Below are positions 2,081 to 55,730 of a stretch of 64,000 bases of DNA, piece by piece; within the stretch, counting starts at the first letter, position 1, and every line of letters begins with the position of its first letter. The translations under genes were made by a program, and so were the position numbers. The stretch is from Escherichia coli (lineage in GTDB: Bacteria > Pseudomonadota > Gammaproteobacteria > Enterobacterales > Enterobacteriaceae). The notes under the pieces were generated by a model. That model had not been told where the DNA came from. It ran no database searches and worked only from the letters and a program-made list of their open reading frames with translations. The stretch lies in NCBI RefSeq assembly GCF_030384885.1, contig NZ_CP128613.1; one strand, 5' to 3'.

Positions 2081-2596
<516 letters not shown>

Positions 2597-2602
2597 CACT
2601 AA

Positions 2603-2629
2603 CGCCCGCACATTGCTGCGGGCTTTTTG
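2603..2629 (+). terminator. Rho-independent terminator downstream of uspF
   Basis: Hairpin cgcccgcacattgctgcgggc followed by tttttg. Confidence 0.7.
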
Positions 2630-2771
2630 ATTCATTTCGCAAATGTGCTGACATTTTCCCCTCTAATCCGTACCATACACGCCACAGTTTTTATATCAGA
2701 TTTCTTATGCTGGGCGTTCCGGCATGACGCATACTCTTCTGATGCCATATAACGAATTGAGTCGCTTTTAA

Positions 2772-3707
2772 ATGTCGCAAAATCAAGAAATTAGTAAGAA
2801 AGAACAATACAATCTGAACAAATTACAAAAACGTCTGCGTCGTAACGTGGGCGAAGCCATTGCTGACTTCAATATGATTGAAGAAGGCGATCGCATCATG
2901 GTTTGCCTCTCCGGGGGTAAAGACAGCTATACCATGCTGGAGATTCTGCGCAATTTGCAGCAAAGCGCGCCAATCAATTTTTCGCTGGTGGCTGTTAACC
3001 TCGATCAAAAGCAACCGGGCTTCCCGGAACACGTTCTGCCCGAGTATCTTGAAAAGCTGGGCATTGAGTACAAGATTGTGGAAGAGAACACTTACGGTAT
3101 CGTGAAAGAGAAGATTCCGGAGGGCAAAACCACTTGCTCACTGTGTTCTCGTCTTCGTCGCGGAATTCTTTACCGTACCGCAACGGAACTGGGAGCGACG
3201 AAGATCGCGCTGGGTCACCATCGTGACGATATCCTGCAAACGTTGTTCTTAAATATGTTCTACGGCGGCAAGATGAAAGGTATGCCTCCGAAACTGATGA
3301 GCGATGATGGCAAACATATTGTGATTCGTCCGCTGGCCTACTGCCGCGAGAAAGATATTCAGCGCTTTGCCGATGCAAAAGCGTTCCCGATTATTCCGTG
3401 CAACCTGTGCGGTTCACAACCTAACCTGCAACGTCAGGTGATTGCTGACATGTTGCGTGACTGGGATAAACGTTATCCGGGGCGTATCGAGACGATGTTC
3501 AGCGCGATGCAGAATGTGGTGCCGTCGCATCTGTGCGATACCAACCTGTTCGATTTCAAAGGCATTACCCACGGTTCTGAAGTGGTTAACGGGGGTGATC
3601 TGGCGTTTGATCGCGAAGAGATCCCTCTACAACCGGCGGGTTGGCAGCCTGAAGAAGATGAAAATCAGTTGGATGAGTTACGACTGAATGTGGTTGAAGT
3701 GAAATAA
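2772..3707 (+). CDS. ttcA: tRNA-cytidine(32) 2-sulfurtransferase TtcA
   Basis: 311 aa; PP-loop motif CLSGGKDS and two CxxC pairs (CSLC, CNLC) typical of TtcA. Confidence 0.92.
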
Positions 3708-3795
3708 CCCGGATAGCGCCCGATGCGCAAGCTTATCGGGCTACTCTTATGGAGGCCGGATAAGACGCGGCCAGCGTCGCATCCGGCAATCCCGA
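3708..3795. repeat. REP (repetitive extragenic palindromic) elements, two units
   Basis: ccggatagcgcccgatgcgcaagcttatcgggc and gccggataagacgcggccagcgtcgcatccggc between convergent ttcA and dbpA. Confidence 0.8.
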
Positions 3796-3835
3796 AGAAG
3801 ATGTTTACTCTTGCACCCTGCGATTCAACATTTCA

Positions 3836-5209
3836 TTATTTTAATAACCGCACCCGGCACGTTTTTCCTTTAATCTTCCCGCCCTGTAACTGTTTCCATG
3901 CTTTATGAGCAACAGCCTGACGCACCGCAACATAGACATGCGCCGGATGCACGGCGATTTTGCCAATATCTGCGCCATCAAGCCCGATATCTCCTGTCAG
4001 CGCACCTAATACATCACCCGGGCGCATTTTGGCTTTTTTCCCGCCATCGATACATAACGTTGCCATTTCTGCTTCCAGCGGCACAATGGAACTATTAACT
4101 GGCGGCGTTTGCCAGTTAAGTTTTATCTGCAACATGTCAGAAATGATATTGGCCCGCTGTGCTTCTTCCGGGGCACAGAAACTGATCGCCAGACCGCTAT
4201 TTCCTGCACGCGCTGTACGCCCGATGCGATGTACATGAACTTCAGGGTCCCACGCCAGTTCAAAGTTCACTACCAGCTCAAGCGATTTAATATCAAGACC
4301 ACGCGCAGCAACATCCGTCGCAACCAGCACACGAGCGCTACCGTTAGCAAAACGTACCAGGGTCTGATCGCGGTCACGTTGCTCCAGATCGCCATGTAAC
4401 GACAATGCACTTTGCCCTATGTCATTCAGCGCGTCGCAGACAGCCTGACAATCTTTTTTGGTATTGCAAAACACCACGCAAGAGGATGGCTGATGCAAAC
4501 TTAATAACCGTTGCAACAGCGGAATTTTGCCTTTGCTGGATGTCTCATAAAATTGTTGTTCAATGGGAGGCAGAGCATCTGTTGAGTCAATTTCAATCGC
4601 CAATGGATCGCGTTGCACTCGTCCGCTGATTGCGGTGATGGCTTCCGGCCAGGTTGCCGAAAACAGAAGCGTCTGTCGAGATGCTGGCGCAAAACGGATA
4701 ACATCATCAATGGCATCGCTAAATCCCATATCCAGCATGCGATCGGCTTCATCCATCACCAGCATATTCAACGCATCCAGTGATACCGTGCCTTTTTGCA
4801 GATGGTCCAGCAAACGACCCGGGGTTGCCACGATAATATGCGGCGCATGTTGCAACGAATCACGCTGCATACCGAACGGTTGACCACCGCACAAAGTCAA
4901 AATTTTGGTATTTGGCAGAAAACGCGCCAGCCGACGCAATTCACCTGCCACCTGATCCGCCAGTTCACGCGTAGGGCACAGCACTAAAGCCTGGGTCTGA
5001 AATAGCGACGCATCAATTTTCTGTAGCAGCCCGAGGCCAAAAGCCGCCGTTTTGCCGCTGCCGGTTTTCGCCTGCACGCGAACATCTTTTCCGGCAAGGA
5101 TCGCCGGAAGCGCGGCGGCCTGCACCGGCGTCATAGTTAAATAACCCAACTCATTAAGGTTCGTGAGTTGGGCGGGAGGCAAAACATTCAGGGTAGAAAA
5201 AGCGGTCAC
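3836..5209 (-). CDS. dbpA: ATP-dependent 23S rRNA-specific DEAD-box RNA helicase DbpA
   Basis: 457 aa; Walker A KTGSGKTAAF, DEAD box (VMDEADRMLDMGF), SAT and HRIGRTAR motifs. Confidence 0.93.
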   Translation of the reverse strand: MTAFSTLNVLPPAQLTNLNELGYLTMTPVQAAALPAILAGKDVRVQAKTGSGKTAAFGLGLLQKIDASLFQTQALVLCPTRELADQVAGELRRLARFLPNTKILTLCGGQPFGMQRDSLQHAPHIIVATPGRLLDHLQKGTVSLDALNMLVMDEADRMLDMGFSDAIDDVIRFAPASRQTLLFSATWPEAITAISGRVQRDPLAIEIDSTDALPPIEQQFYETSSKGKIPLLQRLLSLHQPSSCVVFCNTKKDCQAVCDALNDIGQSALSLHGDLEQRDRDQTLVRFANGSARVLVATDVAARGLDIKSLELVVNFELAWDPEVHVHRIGRTARAGNSGLAISFCAPEEAQRANIISDMLQIKLNWQTPPVNSSIVPLEAEMATLCIDGGKKAKMRPGDVLGALTGDIGLDGADIGKIAVHPAHVYVAVRQAVAHKAWKQLQGGKIKGKTCRVRLLK

Positions 5210-5470
5210 AATCTGTTCTCGTGGTCATCGACGCAAAAATTAGCAAGCGCGTATCCTCGCAGATCTACGCTCACGATGCGACAATTTAATCGGTTCTTCA
5301 TCGGGTGGTGGGTCAGGCATGGGTTGCGGGCGAGGGATTGGATCGGGCACTGGAACAGGATCGCCAGGAATCGGTTCAGGGACAGGAATTTGCAAATAAA
5401 TGAGTGTCGTCATATTTCCCTCCGGTCATTGGGTGGACTCTTAAAGGGTAGACGCTGATATATAACAGGC

Positions 5471-5592
5471 AAAAAAAAGCCGACTCATCAAAGTCGGCGT
5501 CGTACGAATCAATTGTGCTATGCAGTAATTCAAAAAAGGAAGTAAGACAATATGGAGCGCAACGCCCATCGCTTGACGTTGCATTCACCTGC
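5471..5592 (-). ncRNA. fnrS: FnrS small RNA (FNR-activated, anaerobic)
   Basis: Reverse complement reads GCAGGTGAATGCAACGTCAAGCGATGGGCGTTGCGCTCCATATTGTCTTACTTCCTTTTTTGAATTACTGCATAGCACAATTGATTCGTACGACGCCGACTTTGATGAGTCGGCTTTTTTTT, matching recalled FnrS with its terminator; located between zntB and dbpA. Confidence 0.85.
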
Positions 5593-5628
5593 AAGAGAGA
5601 TATTGCCCTGAATGGGTAGAGAGTTTAT

Positions 5629-5642
5629 TGACTTCGCTCAAA
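5629..5642 (-). promoter_or_regulatory. FNR box (TTGA-N6-TCAA) centred about 42 bp upstream of the fnrS 5' end
   Basis: ttgacttcgctcaa matches the FNR half-site palindrome at class II promoter spacing relative to the fnrS start. Confidence 0.65.
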
Positions 5643-5687
5643 CTTTGCGGCGTTTTTGTATACAGATAGTAGGGAAAATTGCTGTTG

Positions 5688-6692
<1,005 letters not shown>

Positions 6693-6925
6693 TTATTTTG
6701 TAGTCTAGCCTTCTGGCCCTGTTACGCAACATCTCATCACCCCATTACCCTGAAATGATTAATAAAATTCTGTCTAAATTGAATACAAAAAGCAAAATGC
6801 TTTTCCATATACAAACCGTGTGAAGTGTTAAATAGCGTCTATCATTATCAGAATTATCTGATCATATGACGTGGCTTTATTGCGATCGGATAGCAACAAA
6901 AATTGATAAAAATAACGGGATCTCA

Positions 6926-8158
6926 ATGATTACGCACAACTTCAATACCCTGGACTTACTCACCAGTCCTGTCTGGATCGTTTCGCCCTTTGAGGAACAG
7001 TTAATTTATGCCAACAGCGCGGCGCGACTGTTGATGCAAGACCTCACGTTTAGTCAGCTACGAACCGGTCCCTATTCCGTCTCCTCACAAAAAGAACTGC
7101 CGAAATACCTCTCCGATCTGCAAAACCAACACGATATTATCGAAATCCTCACCGTTCAACGTAAAGAAGAGGAAACAGCATTAAGCTGTCGGCTTGTTTT
7201 GCGAGAGCTGACAGAAGCAGAACCGGTGATTATTTTCGAAGGTATCGAAGCACCGGCAACGCTGGGTTTAAAAGCCAGTCGCTCGGCAAATTATCAGCGC
7301 AAAAAACAAGGTTTTTATGCGCGCTTTTTTCTGACTAACTCTGCACCAATGTTGTTGATTGACCCCTCACGAGATGGCCAAATCGTCGATGCTAACCTCG
7401 CCGCGCTCAATTTCTATGGTTATAACCATGAAACGATGTGCCAGAAACATACCTGGGAAATTAATATGCTCGGGCGTCGCGTCATGCCTATCATGCATGA
7501 AATCTCGCATTTACCCGGTGGTCATAAGCCTTTGAATTTTGTTCATAAACTGGCGGATGGTTCGACTCGTCATGTGCAGACCTATGCTGGGCCGATTGAA
7601 ATTTATGGCGACAAGCTCATGTTATGTATTGTGCATGATATTACGGAGCAAAAACGGCTGGAGGAGCAGCTGGAACATGCTGCCCACCATGACGCGATGA
7701 CCGGATTACTGAATCGGCGCCAGTTTTATCACATTACCGAGCCAGGCCAAATGCAGCACCTCGCCATCACTCAGGATTACAGCTTATTGCTCATCGACAC
7801 CGATCGTTTTAAACACATTAACGATCTCTATGGGCATTCTAAAGGTGATGAGGTGTTATGCGCCCTCGCCCGCACTCTCGAAAGTTGCGCTCGCAAAGGC
7901 GATTTGGTGTTTCGTTGGGGAGGCGAAGAGTTTGTCTTATTGCTACCAAGAACCCCACTGGATACCGCGCTTTCGCTGGCTGAAACTATCCGCGTAAGCG
8001 TGACAAAAGTGAGTATTTCGGGCTTACCACGCTTTACCGTCAGCATTGGTGTGGCGCATCACGAAGGAAATGAAAGCATCGATGAACTGTTTAAACGCGT
8101 TGATGATGCTTTGTATCGGGCGAAAAATGATGGACGCAACCGCGTGCTGGCGGCATAA
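6926..8158 (+). CDS. dgcM: diguanylate cyclase DgcM (PAS-PAS-GGDEF)
   Basis: 410 aa from the ATG at 6926 (MITHNFNTLDLL); C-terminal GGDEF domain with RWGGEEF active-site motif. Confidence 0.88.
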   Translation: MITHNFNTLDLLTSPVWIVSPFEEQLIYANSAARLLMQDLTFSQLRTGPYSVSSQKELPKYLSDLQNQHDIIEILTVQRKEEETALSCRLVLRELTEAEPVIIFEGIEAPATLGLKASRSANYQRKKQGFYARFFLTNSAPMLLIDPSRDGQIVDANLAALNFYGYNHETMCQKHTWEINMLGRRVMPIMHEISHLPGGHKPLNFVHKLADGSTRHVQTYAGPIEIYGDKLMLCIVHDITEQKRLEEQLEHAAHHDAMTGLLNRRQFYHITEPGQMQHLAITQDYSLLLIDTDRFKHINDLYGHSKGDEVLCALARTLESCARKGDLVFRWGGEEFVLLLPRTPLDTALSLAETIRVSVTKVSISGLPRFTVSIGVAHHEGNESIDELFKRVDDALYRAKNDGRNRVLAA

Positions 8159-9064: not shown

Positions 9065-9071
9065 TGCAGTT

Positions 9072-9980
9072 TTAACTTTGCAGATAGCCGCATTCTCGCC
9101 GAAATTGCGTGATTAATGACGCGGTCAGTGGTGTCTGGCGACTATCACGCCGCTGAATCAAATAATAGGCCGCTTTCGGTAAAATTTCGCTAACCGGCAA
9201 CATCACCAGCCCCTGTCCGTGCAAGGGATCGCAGCCCATTTCTTCAGGTAGTATGCTGAGAAAATCGCTTTTTGCCACCAGACTGATACAGGCTGAAAAC
9301 GTCTCGCAGACTACGCCGACCTGTGGCGTTTGCGCCTGATCGTCAAGCAATTCACTCAACTGTTTGTAGTAGCTGCCGTGTGGCGTCGGCATTGTCCAGC
9401 TGTAGTCCAGTAACTGTTTGATCGAACGGGCACCAATGGCGGGATGTCCCGGGCGGCAAAAGATCGCGAATTGCTTTTCCAGTAATTTCTCAAAAGTAAA
9501 TTCGTGGTCGTAGGGTCCCTGATAATAGGTATTGATGGTGAAATCCAGTTCTCCCTGGCGCAATTCATTAATCATCGACACCAGTTGCCCTTCCATAATG
9601 CGTACTTTTACCTGCGGATGCTGCTGATGAAAACGAGATATGACAGCTGGCATCAGACTGCGGGAAATACTGGCCCCCATGCCGATATTAATTTGCCCTG
9701 CCAGTTGCCCTTGTCGTTGGCGAATATCCTCTTGCGCTGCGCGCAGCTCTTCAAGAATAAGACTGGCGTGCTGATAAAAACTTTCGCCGGCATCAGTTAA
9801 CGTCACGCCTTTACTACGGCGAAAAAAGAGTTGCGCCGCTAACCCTTCTTCCAGCTCCTGAATAGATTTACTCAGTGCCGGTTGCGACATATTCAACATG
9901 CGGCTCGCTCCGCGAATGCTGCCCTGACGAGCCACTTCAACAAAAGCCCGAATTTGATGAATTTTTACCTGAAAAGCCAT
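9072..9980 (-). CDS. abgR: LysR-family transcriptional regulator AbgR
   Basis: 302 aa; N-terminal HTH (ASRMLNMSQPALSKSIQELEE) and LysR substrate-binding domain; divergent from abgA. Confidence 0.9.
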   Translation of the reverse strand: MAFQVKIHQIRAFVEVARQGSIRGASRMLNMSQPALSKSIQELEEGLAAQLFFRRSKGVTLTDAGESFYQHASLILEELRAAQEDIRQRQGQLAGQINIGMGASISRSLMPAVISRFHQQHPQVKVRIMEGQLVSMINELRQGELDFTINTYYQGPYDHEFTFEKLLEKQFAIFCRPGHPAIGARSIKQLLDYSWTMPTPHGSYYKQLSELLDDQAQTPQVGVVCETFSACISLVAKSDFLSILPEEMGCDPLHGQGLVMLPVSEILPKAAYYLIQRRDSRQTPLTASLITQFRRECGYLQS

Positions 9981-10155: not shown

Positions 10156-11466
10156 ATGGAGTCTTTGAATCAATTTATTAATTCGCTTGCCCCAAAATTA
10201 TCGCACTGGCGACGTGATTTTCACCACTATGCAGAGTCTGGCTGGGTGGAATTCCGCACTGCCACCCTTGTTGCGGAAGAATTGCACCAGCTCGGTTATT
10301 CACTGGCGCTGGGCCGCGAAGTCGTTAATGAAAGTAGCCGGATGGGATTACCTGATGAATTCACTCTACAACGCGAATTCGAGCGCGCTCGTCAACAGGG
10401 GGCGCTAGAACAATGGATTGCGGCTTTTGAAGGCGGTTTCACTGGCATCGTCGCCACCCTGGATACCGGTCGCCCCGGTCCGGTGATGGCTTTCCGTGTC
10501 GATATGGACGCGCTGGATCTCAGTGAAGAACGGGATGTCAGCCATCGCCCCTACCGCGACGGTTTTGCGTCATGTAACGCCGGAATGATGCATGCCTGTG
10601 GTCATGATGGACATACCGCTATTGGGCTTGGGCTGGCGCACACCCTTAAACAGTTCGAGTCCGGACTTCACGGCGTCATCAAACTGATTTTTCAGCCTGC
10701 AGAGGAAGGTACGCGTGGCGCGCGGGCGATGGTCGATGCAGGTGTAGTGGATGATGTTGATTATTTTACTGCTGTGCACATTGGCACTGGTGTACCTGCG
10801 GGCACAGTAGTGTGCGGCAGTGATAATTTTATGGCAACAACCAAATTTGACGCGTACTTCACCGGGACCGCCGCTCACGCAGGCGCAAAACCAGAAGATG
10901 GTCACAATGCCTTACTGGCGGCAGCACAAGCAACTCTTGCACTGCATGCAATCGCCCCGCACAGCGAAGGCGCTTCCAGAGTAAACGTGGGCGTTATGCA
11001 GGCAGGAAGCGGTCGTAATGTGGTTCCTGCCTCGGCGTTGCTGAAAGTTGAAACTCGAGGGGTCAGCGACGTCATCAATCAATATGTTTTTGACCGTGCA
11101 CAACAAGCGATTCAGGGCGCAGCAGCCATGTATGGTGTCGGCGTTGAAACTCGGCTGATGGGTGCAGCTACCGCCAGTTCTCCTTCGCCGCAATGGGTCG
11201 CATGGTTACAAAGCCAGGCGGCTCAGGTCGCGGGGGTCAATCAGGCCATTGAACGTGTTGAAGCGCCTGCGGGTTCCGAAGATGCCACATTAATGATGGC
11301 CCGCGTGCAGCGACATCAAGGGCAAGCCTCCTACATGGTATTTGGCACACAGCTGGCGGCAGGTCATCACAACGAAAAATTCGATTTTGACGAGCAGGTT
11401 CTCGCTATTGCCGTCGAAACGCTGGCGCGCACCGCGCTTAATTTTCCCTGGACGCGAGGTATCTGA
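10156..11466 (+). CDS. abgA: p-aminobenzoyl-glutamate hydrolase subunit A (M20 amidohydrolase)
   Basis: 436 aa from the ATG at 10156 (MESLNQFIN); M20 metal-binding motifs (ACGHDGH). Confidence 0.9.
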   Translation: MESLNQFINSLAPKLSHWRRDFHHYAESGWVEFRTATLVAEELHQLGYSLALGREVVNESSRMGLPDEFTLQREFERARQQGALEQWIAAFEGGFTGIVATLDTGRPGPVMAFRVDMDALDLSEERDVSHRPYRDGFASCNAGMMHACGHDGHTAIGLGLAHTLKQFESGLHGVIKLIFQPAEEGTRGARAMVDAGVVDDVDYFTAVHIGTGVPAGTVVCGSDNFMATTKFDAYFTGTAAHAGAKPEDGHNALLAAAQATLALHAIAPHSEGASRVNVGVMQAGSGRNVVPASALLKVETRGVSDVINQYVFDRAQQAIQGAAAMYGVGVETRLMGAATASSPSPQWVAWLQSQAAQVAGVNQAIERVEAPAGSEDATLMMARVQRHQGQASYMVFGTQLAAGHHNEKFDFDEQVLAIAVETLARTALNFPWTRGI

Positions 11467-17356: not shown

Positions 17357-17599
17357 GATGTAATCCTTGTGCAGACAAATTTCTTGTTACCTAACAGTAA
17401 CAATACCATGACATTTCACCGTTGTCTGCTCTGAAAACCTCACCTCTTAGCTGGATTTACAATCAACGCATTGATTAGTTAGCTAATGTTGCTACTTCCT
17501 TCCCTGACTATTGATGATCTGAATGAATTGTCGCGGTAAAATAGCCCCGCCAGGGGTTTCCGGCATGACGACAATTATCTGGAGGAGCCTGATAAAACA

Positions 17600-18676: not shown

Positions 18677-20290
18677 TCAATGTTTCACAATATACATAGT
18701 CCGGCTATACGCCACATCTTCCGGGTTATTAATGGGATAACCTTTCAGCCACGGCTTGATTAATCGTCCATTGGTATATTGATAAATTGGTGCAATCGGT
18801 GCTTGCTCCATGAGGATTTTTTCTGCCGCGTTGTAATCGGCATTACGCGCTTTAACGGTATTTTCCGTCGATGCCTGGGCCAAAACTTTGTCGTAGGCCG
18901 GGTTGTTAAAACGTGAAATGTTCCCTGAATGCGTTGACGTTAATAATGTCAGGAAGGTGGAGGGTTCATTATAATCCCCCACCCACGAGGCGCGGATAAC
19001 ATCAAAATTACCTGTATTACGACTATCGATATAGGTTTTCCATTCCTGATTTTGCAGTTTGACATCTACACCAAGGTTCTTTTTCCACATCGATGCCACA
19101 GCAATCGCAATTTTTTGATGGTTTTCTGAAGTATTATACAAAAGCGTCAGCTTCAGCGGTTTTTGCGGACCATAACCGGCTGCGCTCAACAAAGTTTTTG
19201 CCTGCGCATTCAGTTCTTCCTGACTCATTTGTTCAAACGGCGAAGGCTCCGGCGTGAATCCGGCAGTAACATCTGGCGTAAAATGCCACGCTGGTTTTTC
19301 GCCCGTCCCCAACACTTTTTCGGTCATCAGGCGGCGATCTATCGTCATACTTAATGCCAGACGAACGCGCTGATCTGCCGCCGGCCCTTTTTGCGTGTTA
19401 AACGCATAATAATAGGTCCCGAGCTGCGGCGGTGTATAAACCTGCCCCGGAATATCCTTCAACAGCTTCTGATACATATTTTTGGGGAAGGATTCGGTGA
19501 TATCAATATCCCCCGCGAGATAACGCTTAGTGGCTGCGGATTCCTGATTAATTGGCAGGAAGGTCACTTTTTGCAACACCGTTTTGGCGTTATCCCAATA
19601 ATGAGTATTTGGCACCACGACCAGTTTTTCATTGACTACACGCTCTTTAAGAACATAAGCGCCATTGCCGACCAGATTTCCGGGTTTCGTCCACTCTTTC
19701 CCGCTTTCTACGTTAGCTTTTTGCACCGGGAAGAAGGCAAAATTGGCTGTTAAATTCACAAACCACGGCAACGGTTTATCAAGCTGGATTTTCAAAGTAC
19801 GGGCATCAACCGCGGTGACGCCTAGCTGATCAGGCGTAGCTTTACCATCAATAATCGCCTGTGCGTTGTTGATTCCCGCCAGCGCGGCAAACCAGGCAAA
19901 CGGCGACAACGTTTTTGGGTCAACCAGACGTTGCCAGCTGTAGACAAAATCCTGTGCCGTTACCGGTGTGCCATCCGCCCATTTTGCGTTATCGCGCAGG
20001 GTGAAAGTCCAGATACGGTTGTCATTACTTTTCCACTGAGTCGCAACGCCGGGGACAATCTCCCCTTTCTCGTTCTGATTCACCAGTCCTTCAAAAAGAT
20101 CGCGAATGACCTGAATCTCTGGCAGACCCACGGCTTTAGCGGGATCCAGCGACGCAGGCTCATCTTTAATATGGCGCACCAGCTCCTGCTTCTCTGCCAG
20201 TACTGTGCCGCTCGGAACTTCTGCAGCATACGAAAGAGAAATGCTGCTGACCAACAGCGCACAACACGTGACTGAAACAGAGTGCTTCAT
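18677..20290 (-). CDS. mppA: periplasmic murein tripeptide-binding protein MppA
   Basis: 537 aa; signal peptide then an OppA-like family 5 solute-binding protein. Confidence 0.9.
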   Translation of the reverse strand: MKHSVSVTCCALLVSSISLSYAAEVPSGTVLAEKQELVRHIKDEPASLDPAKAVGLPEIQVIRDLFEGLVNQNEKGEIVPGVATQWKSNDNRIWTFTLRDNAKWADGTPVTAQDFVYSWQRLVDPKTLSPFAWFAALAGINNAQAIIDGKATPDQLGVTAVDARTLKIQLDKPLPWFVNLTANFAFFPVQKANVESGKEWTKPGNLVGNGAYVLKERVVNEKLVVVPNTHYWDNAKTVLQKVTFLPINQESAATKRYLAGDIDITESFPKNMYQKLLKDIPGQVYTPPQLGTYYYAFNTQKGPAADQRVRLALSMTIDRRLMTEKVLGTGEKPAWHFTPDVTAGFTPEPSPFEQMSQEELNAQAKTLLSAAGYGPQKPLKLTLLYNTSENHQKIAIAVASMWKKNLGVDVKLQNQEWKTYIDSRNTGNFDVIRASWVGDYNEPSTFLTLLTSTHSGNISRFNNPAYDKVLAQASTENTVKARNADYNAAEKILMEQAPIAPIYQYTNGRLIKPWLKGYPINNPEDVAYSRTMYIVKH

Positions 20291-20472
20291 AAGTTACCCT
20301 CAAACCTGCGTTAATAATCATGCGTAATTATTTGTTTCGCCTTAAAGAAATGCAAACAACTTCCGGCAAAAAAGTGATACAAGATCGATAACATAGCGTT
20401 GAAGAAAAGGATTTGATAATCCGCAAAATTTGCACAACACTGCCTGTAATACTTCCTGAACCAGAGACGATC

Positions 20473-21201
20473 ATGACCGTAACTCGCCCACGCGCCGAAC
20501 GCGGCGCATTTCCGCCCGGTACAGAACATTACGGACGTTCATTATTGGGCGCGCCTTTGATCTGGTTTCCGGCCCCAGCCGCCAGTCACGAAAGTGGTTT
20601 GATTCTGGCTGGCACCCACGGTGATGAAAACTCTTCGGTCGTGACCCTCTCCTGTGCTCTGCGGACATTGACACCGTCTTTGCGCCGCCATCATGTGGTG
20701 CTGTGTGTGAATCCTGACGGCTGCCAGTTAGGGTTACGGGCCAATGCTAATGGCGTGGATTTAAATAGAAACTTTCCGGCAGCAAACTGGAAGGAAGGTG
20801 AAACGGTTTATCGCTGGAACAGCGCCGCTGAAGAACGTGATGTCGTTTTACTGACAGGTGACAAACCTGGCTCCGAACCTGAAACTCAGGCGCTGTGCCA
20901 GCTTATACATCGCATTCAACCTGCCTGGGTGGTCTCATTCCACGATCCACTGGCCTGTATTGAAGACCCCAGACACAGCGAATTAGGTGAATGGCTGGCC
21001 CAGGCGTTTGAATTGCCACTGGTCACCAGCGTCGGTTATGAAACGCCTGGCTCTTTCGGCAGTTGGTGTGCGGATCTCAACCTGCATTGCATCACCGCAG
21101 AGTTTCCGCCCATCTCCTCCGACGAAGCCAGCGAAAAATACCTCTTTGCGATGGCTAACTTGCTGCGCTGGCATCCTAAAGATGCAATGCGCCCGTCGTG
21201 A
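20473..21201 (+). CDS. mpaA: murein peptide amidase A (M14 zinc carboxypeptidase-like)
   Basis: 242 aa from the ATG at 20473 (MTVTRPRAERGAF); HGDE zinc-binding motif. Confidence 0.88.
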   Translation: MTVTRPRAERGAFPPGTEHYGRSLLGAPLIWFPAPAASHESGLILAGTHGDENSSVVTLSCALRTLTPSLRRHHVVLCVNPDGCQLGLRANANGVDLNRNFPAANWKEGETVYRWNSAAEERDVVLLTGDKPGSEPETQALCQLIHRIQPAWVVSFHDPLACIEDPRHSELGEWLAQAFELPLVTSVGYETPGSFGSWCADLNLHCITAEFPPISSDEASEKYLFAMANLLRWHPKDAMRPS

Positions 21202-22141
21202 ATTGAAGCGCCGGTTCCACATCTACCGCCAGCCAGGTCGGTCCGTCAAGATCAGCAAAACTGACCTGCGGCACCAGCGGTAAAGCGGCGTTAATGGCAC
21301 GAGAGGTACACAACATGCAGCCCAGCATCAGACTGAAACCTTGTGCACGTGCTTCAGTCGCCAGCGCCAGCGCTTCCGTCAGGCCACCCGTTTTATCGAG
21401 CTTAATGTTAACCATCTCATAGCGCCCTTTCAGCGCCTTCAGATTGCTACGAGTATGACAACTTTCATCTGCACAAATCGGTAACGGATGAATAAAATTC
21501 TCCAACGCCGCATCGTCCTGCGCAGGAAGCGGTTGTTCAAGCATCGCAACGCCTAAATCCGCCAATAGCTGGCAACGCGCCGCCAACCCTTCTGCACGCC
21601 AGGATTCATTTGCATCAACGATTAGCGTCGCATCGGGTACAGCCGTGCGAATTGCTACCATCCGCTCACTGATAAGATGGTTATCCAGCTTCACTTTCAG
21701 TAATTTCGCGCCTGCCTGCCAGAGTGTTGATGCACTATTGGCCATCTGATCAGGCGTACCGATGACTACCGTCTGGGCAGTGGTGACTGTCTCGGGAAGC
21801 GTTATGCCGATCAAATCAGCCAGCGATTGCTGCTGTTTTCGCGCCGCCAGATCCCACAATGCACAATCCAGCGCATTACGTGCTGCGCCGGCAGGGAGAA
21901 TTTTTTGCAACTCCTCCCGTGTAAGCCCTTTCTCTAATTGCGGCACGACGCTCATAATTTGCGCCATTACCGAGGCATCACTTTCTCCATAACGCGGATA
22001 CGGCGTGCATTCACCGGTGCCTTTAATACCTTCTTCTTCCAGTTCAACCACCACCACGCGCGCTTCACTACGACTTCCCCGAGCAATCACAAACGGGGTA
22101 TGTAAGGGCCAGGCTTCCTCAAATACCTTAACGGTTCTCAT
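21176..22141 (-). CDS. ycjG: L-Ala-D/L-Glu epimerase (enolase superfamily)
   Basis: 321 aa from the ATG at 22141 (MRTVKVFEEAWPLHTPF); 3' end overlaps the mpaA 3' end by 26 bp. Confidence 0.88.
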   Translation of the reverse strand: MRTVKVFEEAWPLHTPFVIARGSRSEARVVVVELEEEGIKGTGECTPYPRYGESDASVMAQIMSVVPQLEKGLTREELQKILPAGAARNALDCALWDLAARKQQQSLADLIGITLPETVTTAQTVVIGTPDQMANSASTLWQAGAKLLKVKLDNHLISERMVAIRTAVPDATLIVDANESWRAEGLAARCQLLADLGVAMLEQPLPAQDDAALENFIHPLPICADESCHTRSNLKALKGRYEMVNIKLDKTGGLTEALALATEARAQGFSLMLGCMLCTSRAINAALPLVPQVSFADLDGPTWLAVDVEPALQFTTGALHL

Positions 22142-22916: not shown

Positions 22917-24959
22917 ATGGATGATAAACAAATTACGGTCTGGCTTAAACACAATTGCTGTTCAACGGACATTCCTGCCATTGCCGAGGCACTAACGAAC
23001 CATGCAGAATGGCTTTTAGAGCTAGCGCCAGATCCTATTGAACAAGGTTGTTCATGTTTACCGCCGACAGCTGCAGCCGGTATTTTTCTTGGCGCAGCGG
23101 CGATGGTTCACTGCGGCGAGGCTAGTGGTGCAGAAACCTGGCTCGAAGCAGCCATTACTGATTACCATTTCTTTAATCCAAATGGATATAGTTCATGGAG
23201 AGGCAGTACGCCTGTTTTTACAGCATTATCGCGTTACCCGGCATTAAGAATGGTGTTATTTAACGCCGCTTGCGCAATGGAAGACTGGAATAAAGCATCC
23301 GCTGTTCTTGAATCGCTTTTCCATGCCAGCGATGTAACGGAAGATAACCCTGTCGCCCCCAATTTTACCCCTTATGCGCTGAAAGCGTTTATCGCGGATT
23401 ACCACCCGTTAGGGCCTGCTTATTATGATGAAACCTGGTTGCTGGCAAAACAAGCGTGGTTAATTAATGCGGGCGTTCTGGATGAGCGAACCTGTAATAC
23501 CTGGAAGCAATATACCCGCCATTTGCGCCATTTGATCCATAATGCACAGTTTTCCGATGCGATCTCTTTTGTACGCAGTAAAAAAGAACCATTAAATCAT
23601 ATCCATACCTACTCAGACTTTTATCTCTATGCGATTGGTTTATTTTCTTCTACTGATCAGCTAAGTGAAGCGCTAACCTGGGTAAAACAATTAATCCGCA
23701 ACAATGATGGTCATTTCCATGATCTTTTCGTTTCAACTGGCGCAAAGCGCCGAATAAAGCCTGAACTTAGTACCTTGCTGAATAATCTCTTGTACAGCGC
23801 AGAGTTTCAGGCGTTGCAGGATAAATATCTCACCGTCGGACATGATGTTGTGCATTCTGGTCCCTTCATGTCACTTTATGAAAAGGTTCTTGGCGGTAAG
23901 TCCCGAAAGCGCTGCGCGATTAGTCGAAAATTAATCTCACCCGGCGAAGCGGTTTATGAATATCGTCAGCTGGATAGTGTGGAATATATTGCAGCGAAAG
24001 CGGCCTTTCAGACATCTGAGCTAAATAATATCGCCCACCGGCATCATAATGATAGTTATCAGTGGCATGAATTTGCCGTCCAATGGCCTCGTCGGGGTTC
24101 ACTTTCTCACCCAGATATTGCCCGTTATTTGTTTGAGCGCCAGGAAGGAAAATGCTTTGATGCCGCAGAGTTTATACAACTGATTGCGGAACCGTTTGTC
24201 TTTCCGATGCGTTTCATATGGGTTGCCGGGTTGTCCTTTGAATTACATCAGTATCCGGATGCCTATTTCGTAAATGACAATATGGCGGGTGAATTTGTTA
24301 ATCTCTGCTGGATGGCTATGAAATGCGGACATGCTGGCGACATTTTCAAACAACTGGCCCACGAGCCGCATGACGTTGCTGACCCTATTTACGCCATGCT
24401 CGCCACGTTTGACCGCGCTGATTGCCGTAGCGCCGCCGCCGCGCACTTTGGACAACCGGAACTACCGGAAATAATGGCACTGGCTTTCAGTTCGAGGTTA
24501 TCGCTCGACAGCGTCCTTACCATCGCTGAGTTTGGTAAAAATCAGCCGCGATTTTCACATGCGCTAGCAACGGCCCTCCTGCGTTACAACCTGCACATCT
24601 ACTCAAACTATATGCCGCAGGTTAACTGGTACCTTCAGGGGCTGGAACACTATGCTTTGGCAAAAGGCGGTCAACTTTTAAATTTCTTTGTGCATATTCC
24701 AGAACAAATTCCCGTTCTGGCGACCATGCTGGAACATGGCGTATTAGTGCGTGGGATCGGTGAAGGTGCCTATGATGGTTATGATAATTCAGCAAATTCA
24801 TTTCATCATGCCGCCGTGATGCACTGCCTCACGCACGCGCCGGAAAAAGTCCGCTACTGGATGGAAACACCCTGGATTCAGAACTATTTAGTGAATGCGC
24901 CGCTGCGTCAAACGGCGCGCCATGTGGAAGCCTGGCATAAAAAGTTTGGCATCAAATGA
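22917..24959 (+). CDS. hypothetical protein, about 680 aa, no family recognised; probably cytoplasmic, Cys/His-rich N-terminus
   Basis: Single long ORF (table entry 22863..24959, which starts at a TTG); the ATG at 22917 has ggag 11 nt upstream. No signal peptide or TM segment by eye. Sits between convergent tpx and tyrR where recalled K-12 order has no gene. Confidence 0.6.
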   Translation: MDDKQITVWLKHNCCSTDIPAIAEALTNHAEWLLELAPDPIEQGCSCLPPTAAAGIFLGAAAMVHCGEASGAETWLEAAITDYHFFNPNGYSSWRGSTPVFTALSRYPALRMVLFNAACAMEDWNKASAVLESLFHASDVTEDNPVAPNFTPYALKAFIADYHPLGPAYYDETWLLAKQAWLINAGVLDERTCNTWKQYTRHLRHLIHNAQFSDAISFVRSKKEPLNHIHTYSDFYLYAIGLFSSTDQLSEALTWVKQLIRNNDGHFHDLFVSTGAKRRIKPELSTLLNNLLYSAEFQALQDKYLTVGHDVVHSGPFMSLYEKVLGGKSRKRCAISRKLISPGEAVYEYRQLDSVEYIAAKAAFQTSELNNIAHRHHNDSYQWHEFAVQWPRRGSLSHPDIARYLFERQEGKCFDAAEFIQLIAEPFVFPMRFIWVAGLSFELHQYPDAYFVNDNMAGEFVNLCWMAMKCGHAGDIFKQLAHEPHDVADPIYAMLATFDRADCRSAAAAHFGQPELPEIMALAFSSRLSLDSVLTIAEFGKNQPRFSHALATALLRYNLHIYSNYMPQVNWYLQGLEHYALAKGGQLLNFFVHIPEQIPVLATMLEHGVLVRGIGEGAYDGYDNSANSFHHAAVMHCLTHAPEKVRYWMETPWIQNYLVNAPLRQTARHVEAWHKKFGIK

Positions 24960-24996
24960 ACGTTGCCGCTGCGCCTGAACGGCGCAGCCAGCACAA

Positions 24997-26538
24997 TCAC
25001 TCTTCGCTTTTCTTCTGGTTTAAGCCATATTCCCGCAACTTATTGGCAATCGCGGTATGCGAAACGCCGAGACGTTTTGCCAGTTTGCGCGTGCTGGGAT
25101 AATTGCGATAAAGCTGAGTTAATACCGAGCGTTCAAAACGGCTGGTGATTTCGTCCAGCGAACCTTCCATCGCATCTTCGCCCACGGCTACCGTTGCGGC
25201 GTCATAATCCGGTAACAAAATATCCTGTGGACGTAGCTCATAACCGTCCAGTTGTGTCAGTGCGCGATAAATAGCGTTCTTTAACTGCCGCACATTTCCC
25301 GGCCACGCATAACGCGTAAGTACAGTATTCAGGTCAGCGGCCAGTTTCGGACGCGGCACGCCCTGCTCGTCGGCAAAGCGGGCGACGAACAGCTCGGTTA
25401 ACGGCATGATGTCCTGCGGACAGTCACGTAGCGGCGGCAGATTGAGCGTCAACACGTTCAGACGATAATAGAGATCTTCACGGAAAACGCCTTTTTGCAC
25501 CAGTTCGACTAAATTCTTCTGCGTAGCGCAAATAACCCTTACATCGACATGCACTTCATGATCTTCACCAACTCGACGGAAAGTACCATCATTAAGGAAA
25601 CGCAGTAATTTCGCCTGCATCCTTGGCGACATCTCGCCTATCTCATCTAACAGCACCGAACCACCGTTCGCCTGCTCAAAGAACCCTTTTTTACCTTCCG
25701 GAGCATGACCAAACAGTTCACTCTCGACCGCATCTTCCGGTATAGACGCGCAGTTCAGCGCCAGGTAAGGTTTGCCCGCTCGTGGGCTTGCCTGATGGCA
25801 GGCGTAGGCAAAGAGATCTTTACCTGTACCGGTGTCACCCGTAATCAGCAACGGCGCGCTTAGCATCGCCAGTTTCTGCGCCTGTTCGACAACATGCTTC
25901 ATTTTCGGGCTGACGGCGACAATTTGACTGAAGGCACTGACGTCCTGTGCAGCGACATTCTGCAACTGACGGCCCATACGAATCGTCGAGCGCAACATCA
26001 CCACCGCACCGGTCAGAACGTGTTGATCATTTTCATCCTGAAGATAAACAGGCGTAATCTCCATCAGGAAATTCTGCCCATTAATAACGACATGCTCGTT
26101 ATGCGAGTCTTGCGGTTCGCTTTCCAGCCAGCGTAAAAAATTAAAGCCGTTAATTAATTGCGCGGCGGTATGGTTGCGCAGGCGATCCAATTTTTGCCCA
26201 AAAAGCTGACAGCTCGCCGGGTTCGCCATATCCACTTTGCTTTTCATATCAACAGAAAGCACAGGCTCAGGCAACGCCTCCAGTAACGCGCTCAACGCCA
26301 GATGCTCACGTTCGGAAGGCATCCACGGAACAGTGCGCACATCGGTAACACCTGCAATACGGCGTATTTCGGCCATCAGACTGCTGAAACTTTCAAATTC
26401 CAGTTCGGCAAAATTGAGGTAGATTCGCCCAATGGGGTCAATCTCAATACCGCGTAAATCAATGCCTCTTAGCACGAGTAGATCGAGTAATTCGCGGGTC
26501 AGACCGAGTCGGTCTTCACAAAAGACTTCCAGACGCAT
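24997..26538 (-). CDS. tyrR: transcriptional regulator TyrR (sigma54-type AAA+ enhancer-binding family)
   Basis: 513 aa from the ATG at 26538 (MRLEVFCEDRLGLTREL); central AAA+ domain (GDTGTGKD, GAFTGA-like) and C-terminal HTH. Confidence 0.93.
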   Translation of the reverse strand: MRLEVFCEDRLGLTRELLDLLVLRGIDLRGIEIDPIGRIYLNFAELEFESFSSLMAEIRRIAGVTDVRTVPWMPSEREHLALSALLEALPEPVLSVDMKSKVDMANPASCQLFGQKLDRLRNHTAAQLINGFNFLRWLESEPQDSHNEHVVINGQNFLMEITPVYLQDENDQHVLTGAVVMLRSTIRMGRQLQNVAAQDVSAFSQIVAVSPKMKHVVEQAQKLAMLSAPLLITGDTGTGKDLFAYACHQASPRAGKPYLALNCASIPEDAVESELFGHAPEGKKGFFEQANGGSVLLDEIGEMSPRMQAKLLRFLNDGTFRRVGEDHEVHVDVRVICATQKNLVELVQKGVFREDLYYRLNVLTLNLPPLRDCPQDIMPLTELFVARFADEQGVPRPKLAADLNTVLTRYAWPGNVRQLKNAIYRALTQLDGYELRPQDILLPDYDAATVAVGEDAMEGSLDEITSRFERSVLTQLYRNYPSTRKLAKRLGVSHTAIANKLREYGLNQKKSEE

Positions 26539-50651: not shown

Positions 50652-51209
50652 TTAAAACGTGGTGGGCGTATGGGCGCTGATAATTCGGCAAATACCTGCC
50701 GACGTATTACTGAAACTGTGCGGGATGCCGGTATTAATGGCATAACTTTGCCCCGCGACGAGGTGGTAATCCTGACCATTAATCGTCAGAACAATTTCAC
50801 CTTCCAGTACAGTGCCTATTTCCTCACCCTGATGCTTAATTCTTTCCCCAGTGGTTGTACCCGGCTGGTAAGTTTCAAAGATCATCGCCAGCGTGCGATT
50901 CGGGTTACCGTTATGAACCAGCTTCATTGACACACCCTGACTGCCCATCTCAATTAAGTCGTCCTGATTAATGACGACCTGTGGCTCATCAGGTTTTTCC
51001 GGCTCGGAAAAGAATTCCGAGAGTGACAGACCATACACCTTCAGCAGCTTTTGCAGCGTACTGATGGCAGGGCTGACTTTATCTTGTTCTATCGTACTGA
51101 TAGCACTGTGAGTCAGCCCGGAGAGTTCGGCGGCACGACGTTGTGAAAGCCCCTGCTGCTGGCGGATTTCCGACAAGCGTTTTCCTGGCGCCAGTCCCTC
51201 ATCACTCAT
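50652..51209 (-). CDS. puuR: HTH-type repressor PuuR (XRE HTH plus cupin)
   Basis: 185 aa; N-terminal XRE HTH and C-terminal cupin. Confidence 0.9.
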   Translation of the reverse strand: MSDEGLAPGKRLSEIRQQQGLSQRRAAELSGLTHSAISTIEQDKVSPAISTLQKLLKVYGLSLSEFFSEPEKPDEPQVVINQDDLIEMGSQGVSMKLVHNGNPNRTLAMIFETYQPGTTTGERIKHQGEEIGTVLEGEIVLTINGQDYHLVAGQSYAINTGIPHSFSNTSAGICRIISAHTPTTF

Positions 51210-51235
51210 ATTTGCATTTCCTTAAACTGTAGTGG

Positions 51236-52000
51236 TCAGAGTCGCTGTTTTTCAGCGATATGGTGCTGACAAGCGGTGATAAAGCCCTCGAACAATATAC
51301 GCGAAAGCGCGTACTCGCTACTGTTCCATTCCGGGTGCCACTGTACGCCCAGCGCAAAAGGATGATTGATGACGCTAACCGCCTCAACTAAGCCATCCGG
51401 TGAGCGAGCTTCAACACGCAACCGTGGGCTAACGACCTTCGCCCCTTGTCCATGCAGAGAGTTTACCCAAAAGTTGCTACATTCAGGTAACAACGCAGAC
51501 AGCAATCCCCCCTCTTCAACCTGAACTTCATGCGACGGTGCATATTGCTGTTCCACCGGCAGTTCGGGATCTTCCCGATGTTCCAGCAATTCAGGCTGTT
51601 CGCACAGCTTGCGATGCAACGAACCACCGGTTGCCACCACCAGTTCCTGTAAACCCCGGCAGATGGCGAAAATGGGGATGCGCCTTTCGAGTGCGGCATT
51701 AATTAACGCCATGCTCAGAAGATCACGCCCGGGATCGGCGTCAGGCTCATCGCCGTTTTCACCATATAGGTGCGGCTGCACATTGCTGGGACTACCAGGA
51801 AGATAAATACCATCGAGTTTCGGCAAAAGTTGTTCAAGTAATGACGGTTCCGCCAGCGCATGTGGCAGCGCAATTGGCAAGCCGCCTGCGTGGATGATGG
51901 CATTCAGGTACTTTTCTTGCAGAGTCTGGGTCGCATGACCCTTAAGCCTGTTCCTGCACATTACGACACCGATAACCGGATTGTTCATTATATTTTCCAT
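51236..52000 (-). CDS. puuD: gamma-glutamyl-gamma-aminobutyrate hydrolase PuuD (class I glutamine amidotransferase-like)
   Basis: 254 aa from the ATG at 52000 (MENIMNNPVIGVVMC). Confidence 0.88.
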   Translation of the reverse strand: MENIMNNPVIGVVMCRNRLKGHATQTLQEKYLNAIIHAGGLPIALPHALAEPSLLEQLLPKLDGIYLPGSPSNVQPHLYGENGDEPDADPGRDLLSMALINAALERRIPIFAICRGLQELVVATGGSLHRKLCEQPELLEHREDPELPVEQQYAPSHEVQVEEGGLLSALLPECSNFWVNSLHGQGAKVVSPRLRVEARSPDGLVEAVSVINHPFALGVQWHPEWNSSEYALSRILFEGFITACQHHIAEKQRL

Positions 52001-52211
52001 GCTCAATCTCACAAAGTGGACTAAATTATCGCCATTACTGCGCTTTAAATGACCTTTATGTTCAATATTTTTTCAATCTAGCAGCGAGTTTTCATTTTTG
52101 CAAACTCAATTTAACATTTGACAAACATTTAGTTTGCATACAGATTCGAATGGTGGTCATTATATTTTACGCTTTGATAACGAGCGGAAAACAAACCAAA
52201 GGCGAAGAATT

Positions 52212-53630
52212 ATGGAAACCAATATCGTTGAAGTAGAGAACTTTGTTCAGCAGTCAGAAGAGAGGCGGGGTAGCGCCTTTACGCAGGAAGTGAAACGCTA
52301 CCTGGAGCGCTACCCGAATACGCAATATGTTGATGTTTTACTTACCGATTTGAATGGTTGTTTTCGTGGAAAACGTATTCCTGTTTCAAGCCTGAAGAAG
52401 CTCGAGAAAGGGTGTTATTTCCCGGCCTCGGTGTTTGCAATGGATATTCTGGGCAACGTAGTAGAAGAAGCGGGTCTGGGTCAGGAAATGGGCGAGCCGG
52501 ATCGTACCTGTGTTCCTATTCTCGGTTCCTTAACCCCATCTGCCGCCGATCCAGAGTTTATCGGTCAGATGCTCCTGACCATGGTCGATGAAGATGGCGC
52601 TCCCTTTGACGTTGAGCCGCGGAACGTTCTTAACCGCCTGTGGCAGCAGCTGCGCCAGCGCGGATTGTTCCCGGTTGTAGCGGTAGAGCTGGAGTTCTAT
52701 TTACTGGATCGCCAGCGCGACGCTGAAGGGTATCTGCAACCGCCCTGCGCGCCCGGCACCGATGACCGCAATACACAAAGTCAGGTTTACTCAGTTGATA
52801 ACCTCAACCACTTCGCCGACGTGCTCAATGATATTGATGAGCTGGCGCAGTTACAGCTGATTCCGGCAGATGGCGCGGTCGCCGAGGCCTCGCCAGGTCA
52901 GTTTGAAATCAATCTTTACCATACCGATAACGTGCTGGAAGCTTGCGATGATGCGCTGGCACTAAAACGCCTGGTGCGTCTGATGGCAGAAAAGCATAAG
53001 ATGCACGCCACTTTTATGGCGAAGCCGTATGAAGAGCACGCGGGCAGCGGGATGCATATCCATATCAGTATGCAAAATAATCGTGGCGAGAACGTGCTTT
53101 CTGACGCGGAAGGCGAAGATTCGCCGCTGCTGAAAAAGATGCTCGCCGGGATGATTGACCTGATGCCGTCATCAATGGCGTTGCTGGCACCAAACGTGAA
53201 CTCGTATCGCCGCTTCCAGCCGGGGATGTATGTACCGACGCAGGCGTCGTGGGGCCATAACAACCGCACCGTCGCCCTGCGCATTCCCTGCGGCGATCGC
53301 CATAATCACCGCGTGGAATATCGCGTGGCGGGTGCCGATGCCAACCCGTATTTGGTGATGGCAGCGATTTTTGCCGGTATTTTGCATGGCCTTGATAACG
53401 AACTGCCATTACAGGAAGAAGTCGAAGGCAACGGGCTGGAACAGGAAGGCTTACCCTTCCCGATTCGCCAGAGCGATGCCCTGGGTGAGTTTATCGAGAA
53501 TGATCACCTGCGCCGCTATTTAGGCGAACGCTTCTGCCATGTCTATCACGCCTGTAAAAATGATGAGCTGTTGCAGTTTGAGCGCCTCATCACAGAAACA
53601 GAAATTGAGTGGATGTTGAAAAACGCGTAA
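52212..53630 (+). CDS. puuA: glutamate--putrescine ligase PuuA (glutamine synthetase family)
   Basis: 472 aa from the ATG at 52212 (METNIVEVENFV); GS-type catalytic domain. Confidence 0.9.
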   Translation: METNIVEVENFVQQSEERRGSAFTQEVKRYLERYPNTQYVDVLLTDLNGCFRGKRIPVSSLKKLEKGCYFPASVFAMDILGNVVEEAGLGQEMGEPDRTCVPILGSLTPSAADPEFIGQMLLTMVDEDGAPFDVEPRNVLNRLWQQLRQRGLFPVVAVELEFYLLDRQRDAEGYLQPPCAPGTDDRNTQSQVYSVDNLNHFADVLNDIDELAQLQLIPADGAVAEASPGQFEINLYHTDNVLEACDDALALKRLVRLMAEKHKMHATFMAKPYEEHAGSGMHIHISMQNNRGENVLSDAEGEDSPLLKKMLAGMIDLMPSSMALLAPNVNSYRRFQPGMYVPTQASWGHNNRTVALRIPCGDRHNHRVEYRVAGADANPYLVMAAIFAGILHGLDNELPLQEEVEGNGLEQEGLPFPIRQSDALGEFIENDHLRRYLGERFCHVYHACKNDELLQFERLITETEIEWMLKNA

Positions 53631-53932
53631 TACCCCTTGCGGGGTTGTTTCAGCGGCCTGAGCGGAGCCAGGCCTGACATTTGCTGGTAATCCAGACATT
53701 TCCCGGATGTCGCGTTATGGAGCGCAGGCGGCAACGGGCTTCCGTTAACGATTAAGACTGTGACGAGGAAATGAGATGATGCCGATGATTAAATCCCCGC
53801 ATGGCGAGGGAGGCTGCGTATGCGCCCCTCCTGCGACTGACTGGACTCCGCCCCCTTTGCTTCCCTTGCTAAACAGGTTTGATTTCAGGTCGATACGACC
53901 GCAAACCTTATTACGCAGGGGAGGCAGCAATT

Positions 53933-55318: not shown

Positions 55319-55327
55319 TAGTCGGAT

Positions 55328-55368
55328 GCGCGGCGCATTATCCTGCCTGAGGGTAATGCGCCGCGCCA
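55328..55368 (+). terminator. long GC-rich palindrome downstream of puuP (terminator or REP-like)
   Basis: gcgcggcgcattatcctgcctgagggtaatgcgccgcgc; no clear T-run follows. Confidence 0.4.
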
Positions 55369-55451
55369 TTAACTATAAAAAGATGTATGACCCGGATCAC
55401 GAGTGCTATCATCCGCCCTTATGCTTAGCGCATTAACCCCAGGGGCAAATA

Positions 55452-55697: not shown

Positions 55698-55730
55698 TTA
55701 TTTCATTGCAGACGCTCGGTCAGTATCGTT

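Follow-up and report, generated by a model that had tools for sequence, protein, structure and literature searches.

The 182-bp mppA–mpaA intergenic region of an Escherichia genome as a probable ancestral empty site for the pgrR cassette of E. coli

In Escherichia coli K-12 MG1655 the genes run in the order mpaA–ymjC–ymjD–ycjY, pgrR and mppA following on the opposite strand, and the gap between mpaA and mppA measures 2,628 bp. The murein-tripeptide catabolic gene cluster is reportedly discussed by Maqbool et al. in a paper of 2012. The regulon of the LysR-type regulator PgrR is given as ycjG, ycjXF-tyrR and ycjY-ymjDC-mpaA, a list in which mppA does not appear (PMC5934670, summarising Shimada et al. 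2013), and the PgrR site obtained by SELEX lies in the ycjY/ycjZ spacer (PMC5934670); PgrR is further described to repress its own promoter (PMC10505187) and to lower mpaA expression in rich medium (PMC9928106). A PgrR-controlled mpaA locus of the K-12 type has PgrR, the ycjY/pgrR operator and read-through from ycjY into mpaA, whereas the locus described here is without all three.

This locus lies in a stretch of 64,000 nucleotides of Escherichia DNA (contig NZ_CP128613.1), which is called the window in the following. It has in common with K-12 the genes mppA, mpaA, ycjG, tpx and tyrR, in the same orientation and with 99% protein identity, as well as the core mppA promoter region and the 125 bp upstream of mpaA, but a 2,446-bp segment (pgrR, ycjY, ymjD and ymjC') and the second copy of a short repeat are absent; the predicted promoters of the two genes stand back to back in the window and 2.6 kb apart in K-12. 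Other Enterobacteriaceae (E. albertii, E. whittamii, Citrobacter, Enterobacter, Klebsiella, Kluyvera) possess the same divergent pair, with the same order, orientation, spacer length and conserved blocks, and differ from the window by nucleotide divergence only, the structure being unchanged. The junction seen in the window is also common to the complete genomes resembling the clade I genomes of Okuno et al. A LysR-regulated hydrolase/reductase cassette of Klebsiella and Raoultella represents the source type of the DNA missing from the window, which itself holds none of it. Finally, in Salmonella enterica subsp. arizonae and diarizonae another foreign segment sits in the same mppA–mpaA spacer; the mpaA-proximal conserved blocks are kept there, the cargo consists of cytolethal distending toxin genes and the mppA-proximal boundary lies at other nucleotides, and this segment, too, is absent from the window.

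We conclude that the window very probably carries the cassette-free, ancestral allele of the mppA–mpaA locus, as retained in Escherichia cryptic clade I, and that E. coli sensu stricto gained the cassette. The finding is real but ordinary: it is a presence/absence polymorphism of a known kind, with nothing new in kind, and the cassette-free arrangement is already annotated in many public genomes.

The divergent gene pair and its control region

The genes and the spacer occupy the following positions of the window:

18677..20290, minus strand: mppA, murein tripeptide-binding protein gene, intact, 537 aa (annotated by RefSeq in NZ_CP027579.1, where this stretch is identical)
20291..20472, no strand: mppA/mpaA intergenic (promoter) region, 182 bp, uninterrupted and divergent (sequence read directly)
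20473..21201, plus strand: mpaA, murein tripeptide amidase gene, intact, 242 aa (NF007897, RefSeq annotation)
21176..22141, minus strand: ycjG, L-Ala-D/L-Glu epimerase gene (NCBIfam equivalog NF011708, 676 bits)

MppA matches the Pfam family SBP_bac_5 (E = 3.6e-94), MpaA scores 478.7 bits against the NCBIfam equivalog NF007897 and thereby exceeds its cut-off of 157, and the identity of 99% to the K-12 protein extends in each case over the full length. The start codon of mppA is found at 20288–20290 (minus strand) and the ATG of mpaA begins at 20473, while ycjG is convergent with mpaA and overlaps it at the 3' end. Across the mppA–mpaA locus the sequence of strain 2013C-4282 equals that of the window base for base, and its RefSeq gene order is ynaI, mppA, mpaA, ycjG, tpx, a hypothetical gene and tyrR. 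No open reading frames touch the spacer other than two mechanical ones, of which one lies at 20311–20529 (minus strand) and one extends mpaA from a TTG at 20413, and no Rfam family matched within 20100–20700.

The original prediction had described mppA and mpaA as direct divergent neighbours with a spacer of about 180 bp, from which the ycjY and pgrR genes of the K-12 order were missing. The K-12 order given was correct, as MG1655 has ymjC, ymjD, ycjY and pgrR between mpaA and mppA, and so was the description of the window: reading the sequence and the ORFs directly gives the 182-bp spacer, and tblastn with K-12 PgrR, YcjY, YmjC and YmjD over the 64-kb window returned two matches only, neither of them an orthologue of PgrR or YcjY. 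One of these, found with PgrR (9564–9965, 26% identity), belongs to the LysR family and is abgR. The other is limited to 18 residues of YmjC (20335–20388), since the C-terminal end of 'ymjC' in K-12 results from translation of ancestral intergenic DNA. It had also been stated that no LysR-type ORF is present, which holds for the spacer but not for the window; abgR (about 9071–9979, minus strand) is the sole LysR-type gene there and is unrelated to the present finding.

The search for pgrR and ycjY elsewhere, suggested together with the prediction, was carried out in the nearest complete genome, 2013C-4282. On its chromosome, a distant blastn search with a chimeric query (a lineage-specific gene joined to K-12 pgrR) gave one match, to the lineage-specific part, and none for pgrR, and neither of its two plasmids gave a tblastn hit to PgrR, YcjY or YmjC. 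A genome-wide absence of pgrR is therefore indicated for this nearest relative, one step from the window's own strain. In the window itself the ycjY/pgrR spacer, which is the PgrR operator region, is missing along with the whole insert, and no ycjY(-ymjD-ymjC) upstream of and co-oriented with mpaA was found. Since pgrR, the operator region and the ycjY operon are all missing, mpaA cannot be under PgrR control of the K-12 type, and the anatomy of the locus supports the earlier claim to this effect; neither PgrR, nor a PgrR operator, nor read-through from the ycjY promoter would act on mpaA in the window. The prediction further had mppA under PgrR control, which goes beyond the regulon listed in the literature consulted.

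Conservation within the spacer was taken from an alignment of 76 loci from about 15 genera. It contains five conserved blocks, which are all present in the window at 20326–20444, in the order AATTATTTGTTTC, AAATGCAAA, AAGTGAT, ATTTGAT and TTTGCACAACACTGCC. The candidate promoter elements are:

20327..20356, minus strand: predicted mppA sigma-70 promoter (-35 TTTGCA at 20356–20351, 18-nt spacer, -10 AATAAT at 20332–20327)
20406..20418, plus strand: block AAA..ATTTGAT, conserved over the 76 loci, with the candidate mpaA -35 TTGATA at 20413–20418
20429..20444, plus strand: 16-nt block TTTGCACAACACTGCC, with the candidate mpaA -10 AACACT at 20436–20441

The first of these is the sole promoter-like site from a scan of 20200–20560, and both of its hexamers lie within blocks that are at least 95% conserved over the 76 loci; we infer that it functions as the mppA promoter. 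For mpaA, spacing and conservation point to a weak candidate, TTGATA – 17 nt – AACACT. Every position of TTTGCACAACACTGCC is at least 80% conserved in the same alignment, most of them at least 95%, and the block is also found upstream of mpaA in the loci of Salmonella arizonae and diarizonae. As it is longer than a -10 element requires, it may in addition be an operator or another regulator-binding site.

Two further candidates were rejected. A sigma-54 promoter, based on reading the minus strand of a conserved block as GGCAGTGTTGTGCAAA, has a GG-to-GC spacing one base under the consensus in a hand alignment. A CRP motif, CGTGAACCGGGTCACA, is given for 'ycjZ/mppA' from ChIP in ETEC H10407 (PMC4287617); it was not found at up to four mismatches in K-12, O157, NC101 or the window, and the top CRP-like match in the spacer reaches just 7/10. 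Promoter data for mppA or mpaA were not found in the further papers searched.

The insertion in E. coli and the direction of change

A scan for MpaA with one genome per bacterial species gave 80 loci. At 75 of these, mppA directly adjoins mpaA in divergent orientation across a spacer of 138–233 bp, the taxa with this short spacer including E. albertii, E. whittamii, Citrobacter, Enterobacter and Klebsiella; ycjY/pgrR stand between the two genes, as in K-12, at a single locus, that of Escherichia sp. E1V33. Six cassette-free Escherichia sequences (the window, E. albertii, E. whittamii, Escherichia sp. MOD1-EC7003 and two 'E. coli' records diverging by 8–15%) share a spacer length of precisely 182 bp and can be aligned to one another with no gap. 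Because this spacer is shared by such a majority of species loci and by all the cassette-free Escherichia, it is taken as the ancestral enterobacterial arrangement, from which the K-12 state is derived by insertion, and 20291–20472 accordingly reads as the 'empty site' for the pgrR cassette. The prediction had implied a loss from a K-12-like norm, and here it fails: it is K-12 that carries an insertion. Its account of the gene order, of the absence and of mpaA lying outside PgrR control thus stands, and the direction of change is the reverse of what it supposed.

The site of insertion can be located on the window by a sequence present there once:

20348..20384, no strand: target sequence AAATGCAAACAACTTCCGGCAAAAAAGTGATACAAGA, about 37 bp, single copy in the window (defined from K-12, O157, NC101, JCM5491 and E1V33)

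In all cassette-bearing versions compared, AAATGCAAACAACTTCCGGCAAAAAAGTGATACAAGA is duplicated and forms an imperfect direct repeat on either side of the insert, the insertion point being equivalent to 20384|20385 of the window. The flanking repeats have an identical core of 12–17 nt at their start in every occupied allele examined. One of the K-12 copies is situated 57 bp upstream of mppA and the other 125 bp upstream of mpaA, the mpaA-side copy supplying the last codons of the annotated 'ymjC'; in O157 the flanking direct repeat was reported independently by a repeat finder (family D2), with a spacing of 3,990 bp. The insertion has a size of 2.4–4.0 kb across E. coli, and the mppA–mpaA interval extends from the K-12 value given above to 3,293 bp in B2 and 4,172 bp in O157. 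The G+C content of the insert is 44.7–44.9%, compared with 55% for mpaA and 53% for ycjG. Terminal inverted repeats, transposase genes and integrase genes were looked for in the insert, and none was found.

The O157:H7 insert consists of a 75-bp queH fragment, pgrR, ycjY, a frameshifted second alpha/beta-hydrolase gene and an intact 212-aa NmrA-like SDR gene, and the B2 insert is without the second hydrolase. The ymjC and ymjD genes of K-12 are the residue of a 665-bp deletion that extends from inside the SDR gene up to where the right repeat begins, and 'ymjC' joins the initial ~46 codons of the NmrA-like SDR gene to DNA of the ancestral spacer (7681–7934 of the K-12 locus record vs 6197–7000 of the long form). 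Both can thus be regarded as decay remnants of the cassette. We also observed that the 665-bp deletion ends no more than 1–2 nt from where the right target repeat begins, and that the right repeat copy of K-12 has G where the long forms have A.

The insertion point sits between both core promoters, and the duplicated 37 bp takes in the -35 element of mppA; therefore both genes would have retained their core promoter. On the other hand, the insertion would have severed mppA from all DNA upstream of 20384 and would have given mpaA a co-oriented upstream operon.

Taken together, these data suggest the following course of events. The genes for murein-tripeptide uptake and breakdown would originally have been transcribed divergently from a single compact 182-bp control region, in the midst of which the lineage leading to E. 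coli sensu stricto would have taken up, on its stem, a foreign segment made of pgrR, divergent from two alpha/beta-hydrolase genes (the first being ycjY) and an NmrA-like reductase gene, with duplication of about 37 bp of the target. Clade I probably never received the cassette. Both alleles would then have persisted and would later have been swapped by homologous recombination in the mppA and mpaA flanks. Judging from its anatomy, the window would have its mpaA transcribed solely from the local promoter, and mppA would keep its full upstream region.

Lineage, haplotypes and alternative explanations

Over 13.2 kb compared, the window differs from 2013C-4282 by 22 mismatches, all of them at 23539–25485, and the two are exactly equal over 51000–57000; identity to K-12 is about 96% across the whole 64 kb, without local divergence around the locus. 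Complete genomes of the strains 2013C-4282 and EC42405 have been published under Escherichia cryptic clade I, whose ANI to its sister group, E. coli sensu stricto, exceeds 95.9% (Okuno et al. 2023, PMC10100065). The near-identity to the former, together with an identity to K-12 that matches the published ANI, leads us to assign the window to clade I. The mppA–mpaA locus is not discussed in the passages searched in PMC10100065. Clade I strains with STEC virulence genes are described in that article, with which the 118.8-kb plasmid NZ_CP027581.1 of 2013C-4282, a virulence plasmid with ehxCABD, espP, saa and iha, is consistent.

The flanks are present in 5,418 of the 5,426 complete E. coli genomes; 5,244 contain the insert and 173 a contiguous junction, by which 5,417 of the 5,418 flank-bearing genomes are accounted for. 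The junction of the window type (98.9–100% identity) occurs in 16 genomes, almost all of them the same strains that are nearest to the window 30 kb away, and these 16 are by this token assigned to clade I. The remaining ~157 contiguous junctions include at least 44 at 97.5% identity, several ST648 strains (phylogroup F) among them. At least one genome with a clade I background, RMDEC465, carries the cassette, so that clade I mostly, rather than invariably, keeps the empty site. In another clade-I-like genome, MFDS1019527, a prophage with an adjacent tyrosine integrase gene lies inside mppA, about 66 nt after the start codon (10218–10465 of the locus record), and the 182-bp spacer and mpaA are intact in spite of it.

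The main alternative is that the lineage once had the cassette and lost it by recombination or slippage between the ~37-bp repeats, which we consider unlikely. Such repeats, with their identical core, are present in every occupied allele examined, and the cassette is decaying within E. coli, as seen from the frameshifted second hydrolase of O157 and the deletions in B2 and K-12. The excision product would, moreover, look exactly like the window: the single repeat copy at 20348–20384 is equally expected after excision and at a site that was never occupied. Precise excision across the repeat would restore an ancestral-looking site, and the proposal that clade I never had the cassette is consequently built on parsimony, a single linked SNP and the depth of the haplotypes. 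Against it stand the cassette in RMDEC465 and a tree of the right flank, in which the window allele falls inside the E. coli cluster and is not strictly basal. The SNP is position 20390, which is A in all empty alleles and all outgroups, the window included, and G in all occupied alleles. In the left flank (20296–20319) the window differs from all occupied alleles at eight sites, and its best occupied match over 20348–21000 is 96.8%; the flanks of the window thus match no occupied haplotype. As every outgroup is empty and clade I is the sister group of E. coli sensu stricto, a loss needs one extra event over retention.

The haplotypes also bear on the remaining contiguous junctions. The ST648 allele follows the occupied type as far as 20319, but from the junction onwards into mpaA it follows the window, and eight derived mpaA sites that neither the occupied alleles nor the outgroup possess are common to the window, Z0117EC0005 and ST648. 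The occupied-type left flank had at first been read as a sign that the 173 empty alleles arose from independent recent deletions, a reading that SNP tracing rejected: since the derived window haplotype runs from the junction into mpaA, the ST648 allele is a recombinant with the same old empty haplotype and not a fresh deletion. In RMDEC465, whose background is clade I, the long cassette lies in a tract resembling sensu stricto that begins at about 19030, spans the junction and extends into the mpaA–ycjG region, and this genome has gained the cassette by introgression. E1V33 has an insert of the K-12 type between whittamii-like flanks, which points to acquisition through recombination. These mosaic flanks show that homologous recombination has carried empty and occupied alleles between a whittamii-like lineage, clade I and E. 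coli sensu stricto.

Exchange in both directions (the cassette gained by RMDEC465 and E1V33, the clade-I-like right flank of ST648) makes it conceivable that the lineage of the window had the cassette and then received an empty allele across mppA–mpaA from another Escherichia lineage. We hold this to be very unlikely. The window allele is 4.8–5.6% distant from MOD1-EC7003, and its distance to each of the other Escherichia species compared is 8.6% or more, so that no donor is evident. The uniform identity to K-12 over the 64 kb, with no local divergence, and the association of the junction type with the clade I background in 16 genomes also stand against a replacement. A mis-assembly or collapse of a repeat-flanked segment, for which nothing more than the short repeats of the occupied alleles could be invoked, has a negligible probability, as the same junction is found in 173 independent complete genomes and 75 other species and a 37-bp repeat would not collapse in long-read assemblies.

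Origin of the cassette and neighbouring observations

Orthologues of PgrR with 87–89% identity are found in Klebsiella, Raoultella, Kluyvera, Enterobacter, Citrobacter, Salmonella and Pantoea, some of them on plasmids. On six contigs of the Klebsiella/Raoultella type with two of these orthologues (88% identity) the gene is always divergent from the same five genes (at about 2282–7900), which encode two alpha/beta hydrolases, an NmrA-like SDR, an adh_short SDR and an Old Yellow Enzyme (OYE). The context of this cassette varies and includes molybdoenzyme genes, a conjugative element (TraG, TraC, RAQPRD) and an ars operon. The E. coli insert aligns with the cassette of the Klebsiella/Raoultella type at 79% DNA identity over 3.6 kb, from the stop codon of pgrR to 71 bp beyond the third gene, where the alignment ends. 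From these comparisons the E. coli insertion is identified as a copy, truncated at its 3' end, of a LysR–hydrolase–reductase cassette that moves among Enterobacteriaceae, and PgrR looks like the dedicated regulator of this cassette. The link between PgrR and mpaA in E. coli would then be owed to the landing place of the truncated copy.

In the arizonae and diarizonae subspecies of Salmonella, the spacer contains three genes with the domains CdtA/C, CdtB-like (Exo_endo_phos) and CdtA/C (4848–8000 and 4562–8000 of the respective locus records). By its domain content, a toxin locus of the cdtABC type thus occupies the same intergenic region as the pgrR cassette of E. coli. A joint reading of these observations, to which we give about an even chance, is that PgrR is an 'accidental' regulator of peptidoglycan recycling, a foreign cassette having captured mpaA by read-through and split the promoters, that clade I provides natural cassette-free controls, and that the spacer is a recurrent landing site. 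A limited literature check found no paper that proposes PgrR as a captured foreign regulator.

For work on other strains, this means that the K-12 regulons (PgrR with ycjY-ymjDC-mpaA, ycjG and ycjXF-tyrR) are not transferable to clade I or to strains of the ST648 type. Cassette-free strains offer a clean test both of the ancestral regulation of the murein-tripeptide genes and of the conserved block TTTGCACAACACTGCC, and the locus illustrates clearly how Escherichia lineages exchange an insertion allele and the corresponding empty allele when the flanking genes recombine.

Some further differences were noted in the neighbourhood. Between tpx and tyrR, which are adjacent in K-12, the window has a 680-aa ORF (22917–24959, plus strand) that is annotated as 'hypothetical protein' and gave no match in searches of Pfam, NCBIfam and PADLOC. 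It is found in about 32 complete E. coli genomes with 93.6–99.4% identity, cassette-free and cassette-bearing alike, and is sometimes split or interrupted by IS600. The patch 23539–25485 that holds all the mismatches to 2013C-4282 covers this hypothetical ORF and the 3' end of tyrR, which suggests a small recombination tract or a hypervariable gene. The IS5 copy that K-12 has between ynaI and ynaJ is absent at 17479–17482 of the window, and positions 1–2778 have no match in K-12 1,340,000–1,425,000, a region that includes the first part of the Rac prophage. Finally, the 1-kb bin at 61001–62000 is just 85% identical to K-12.
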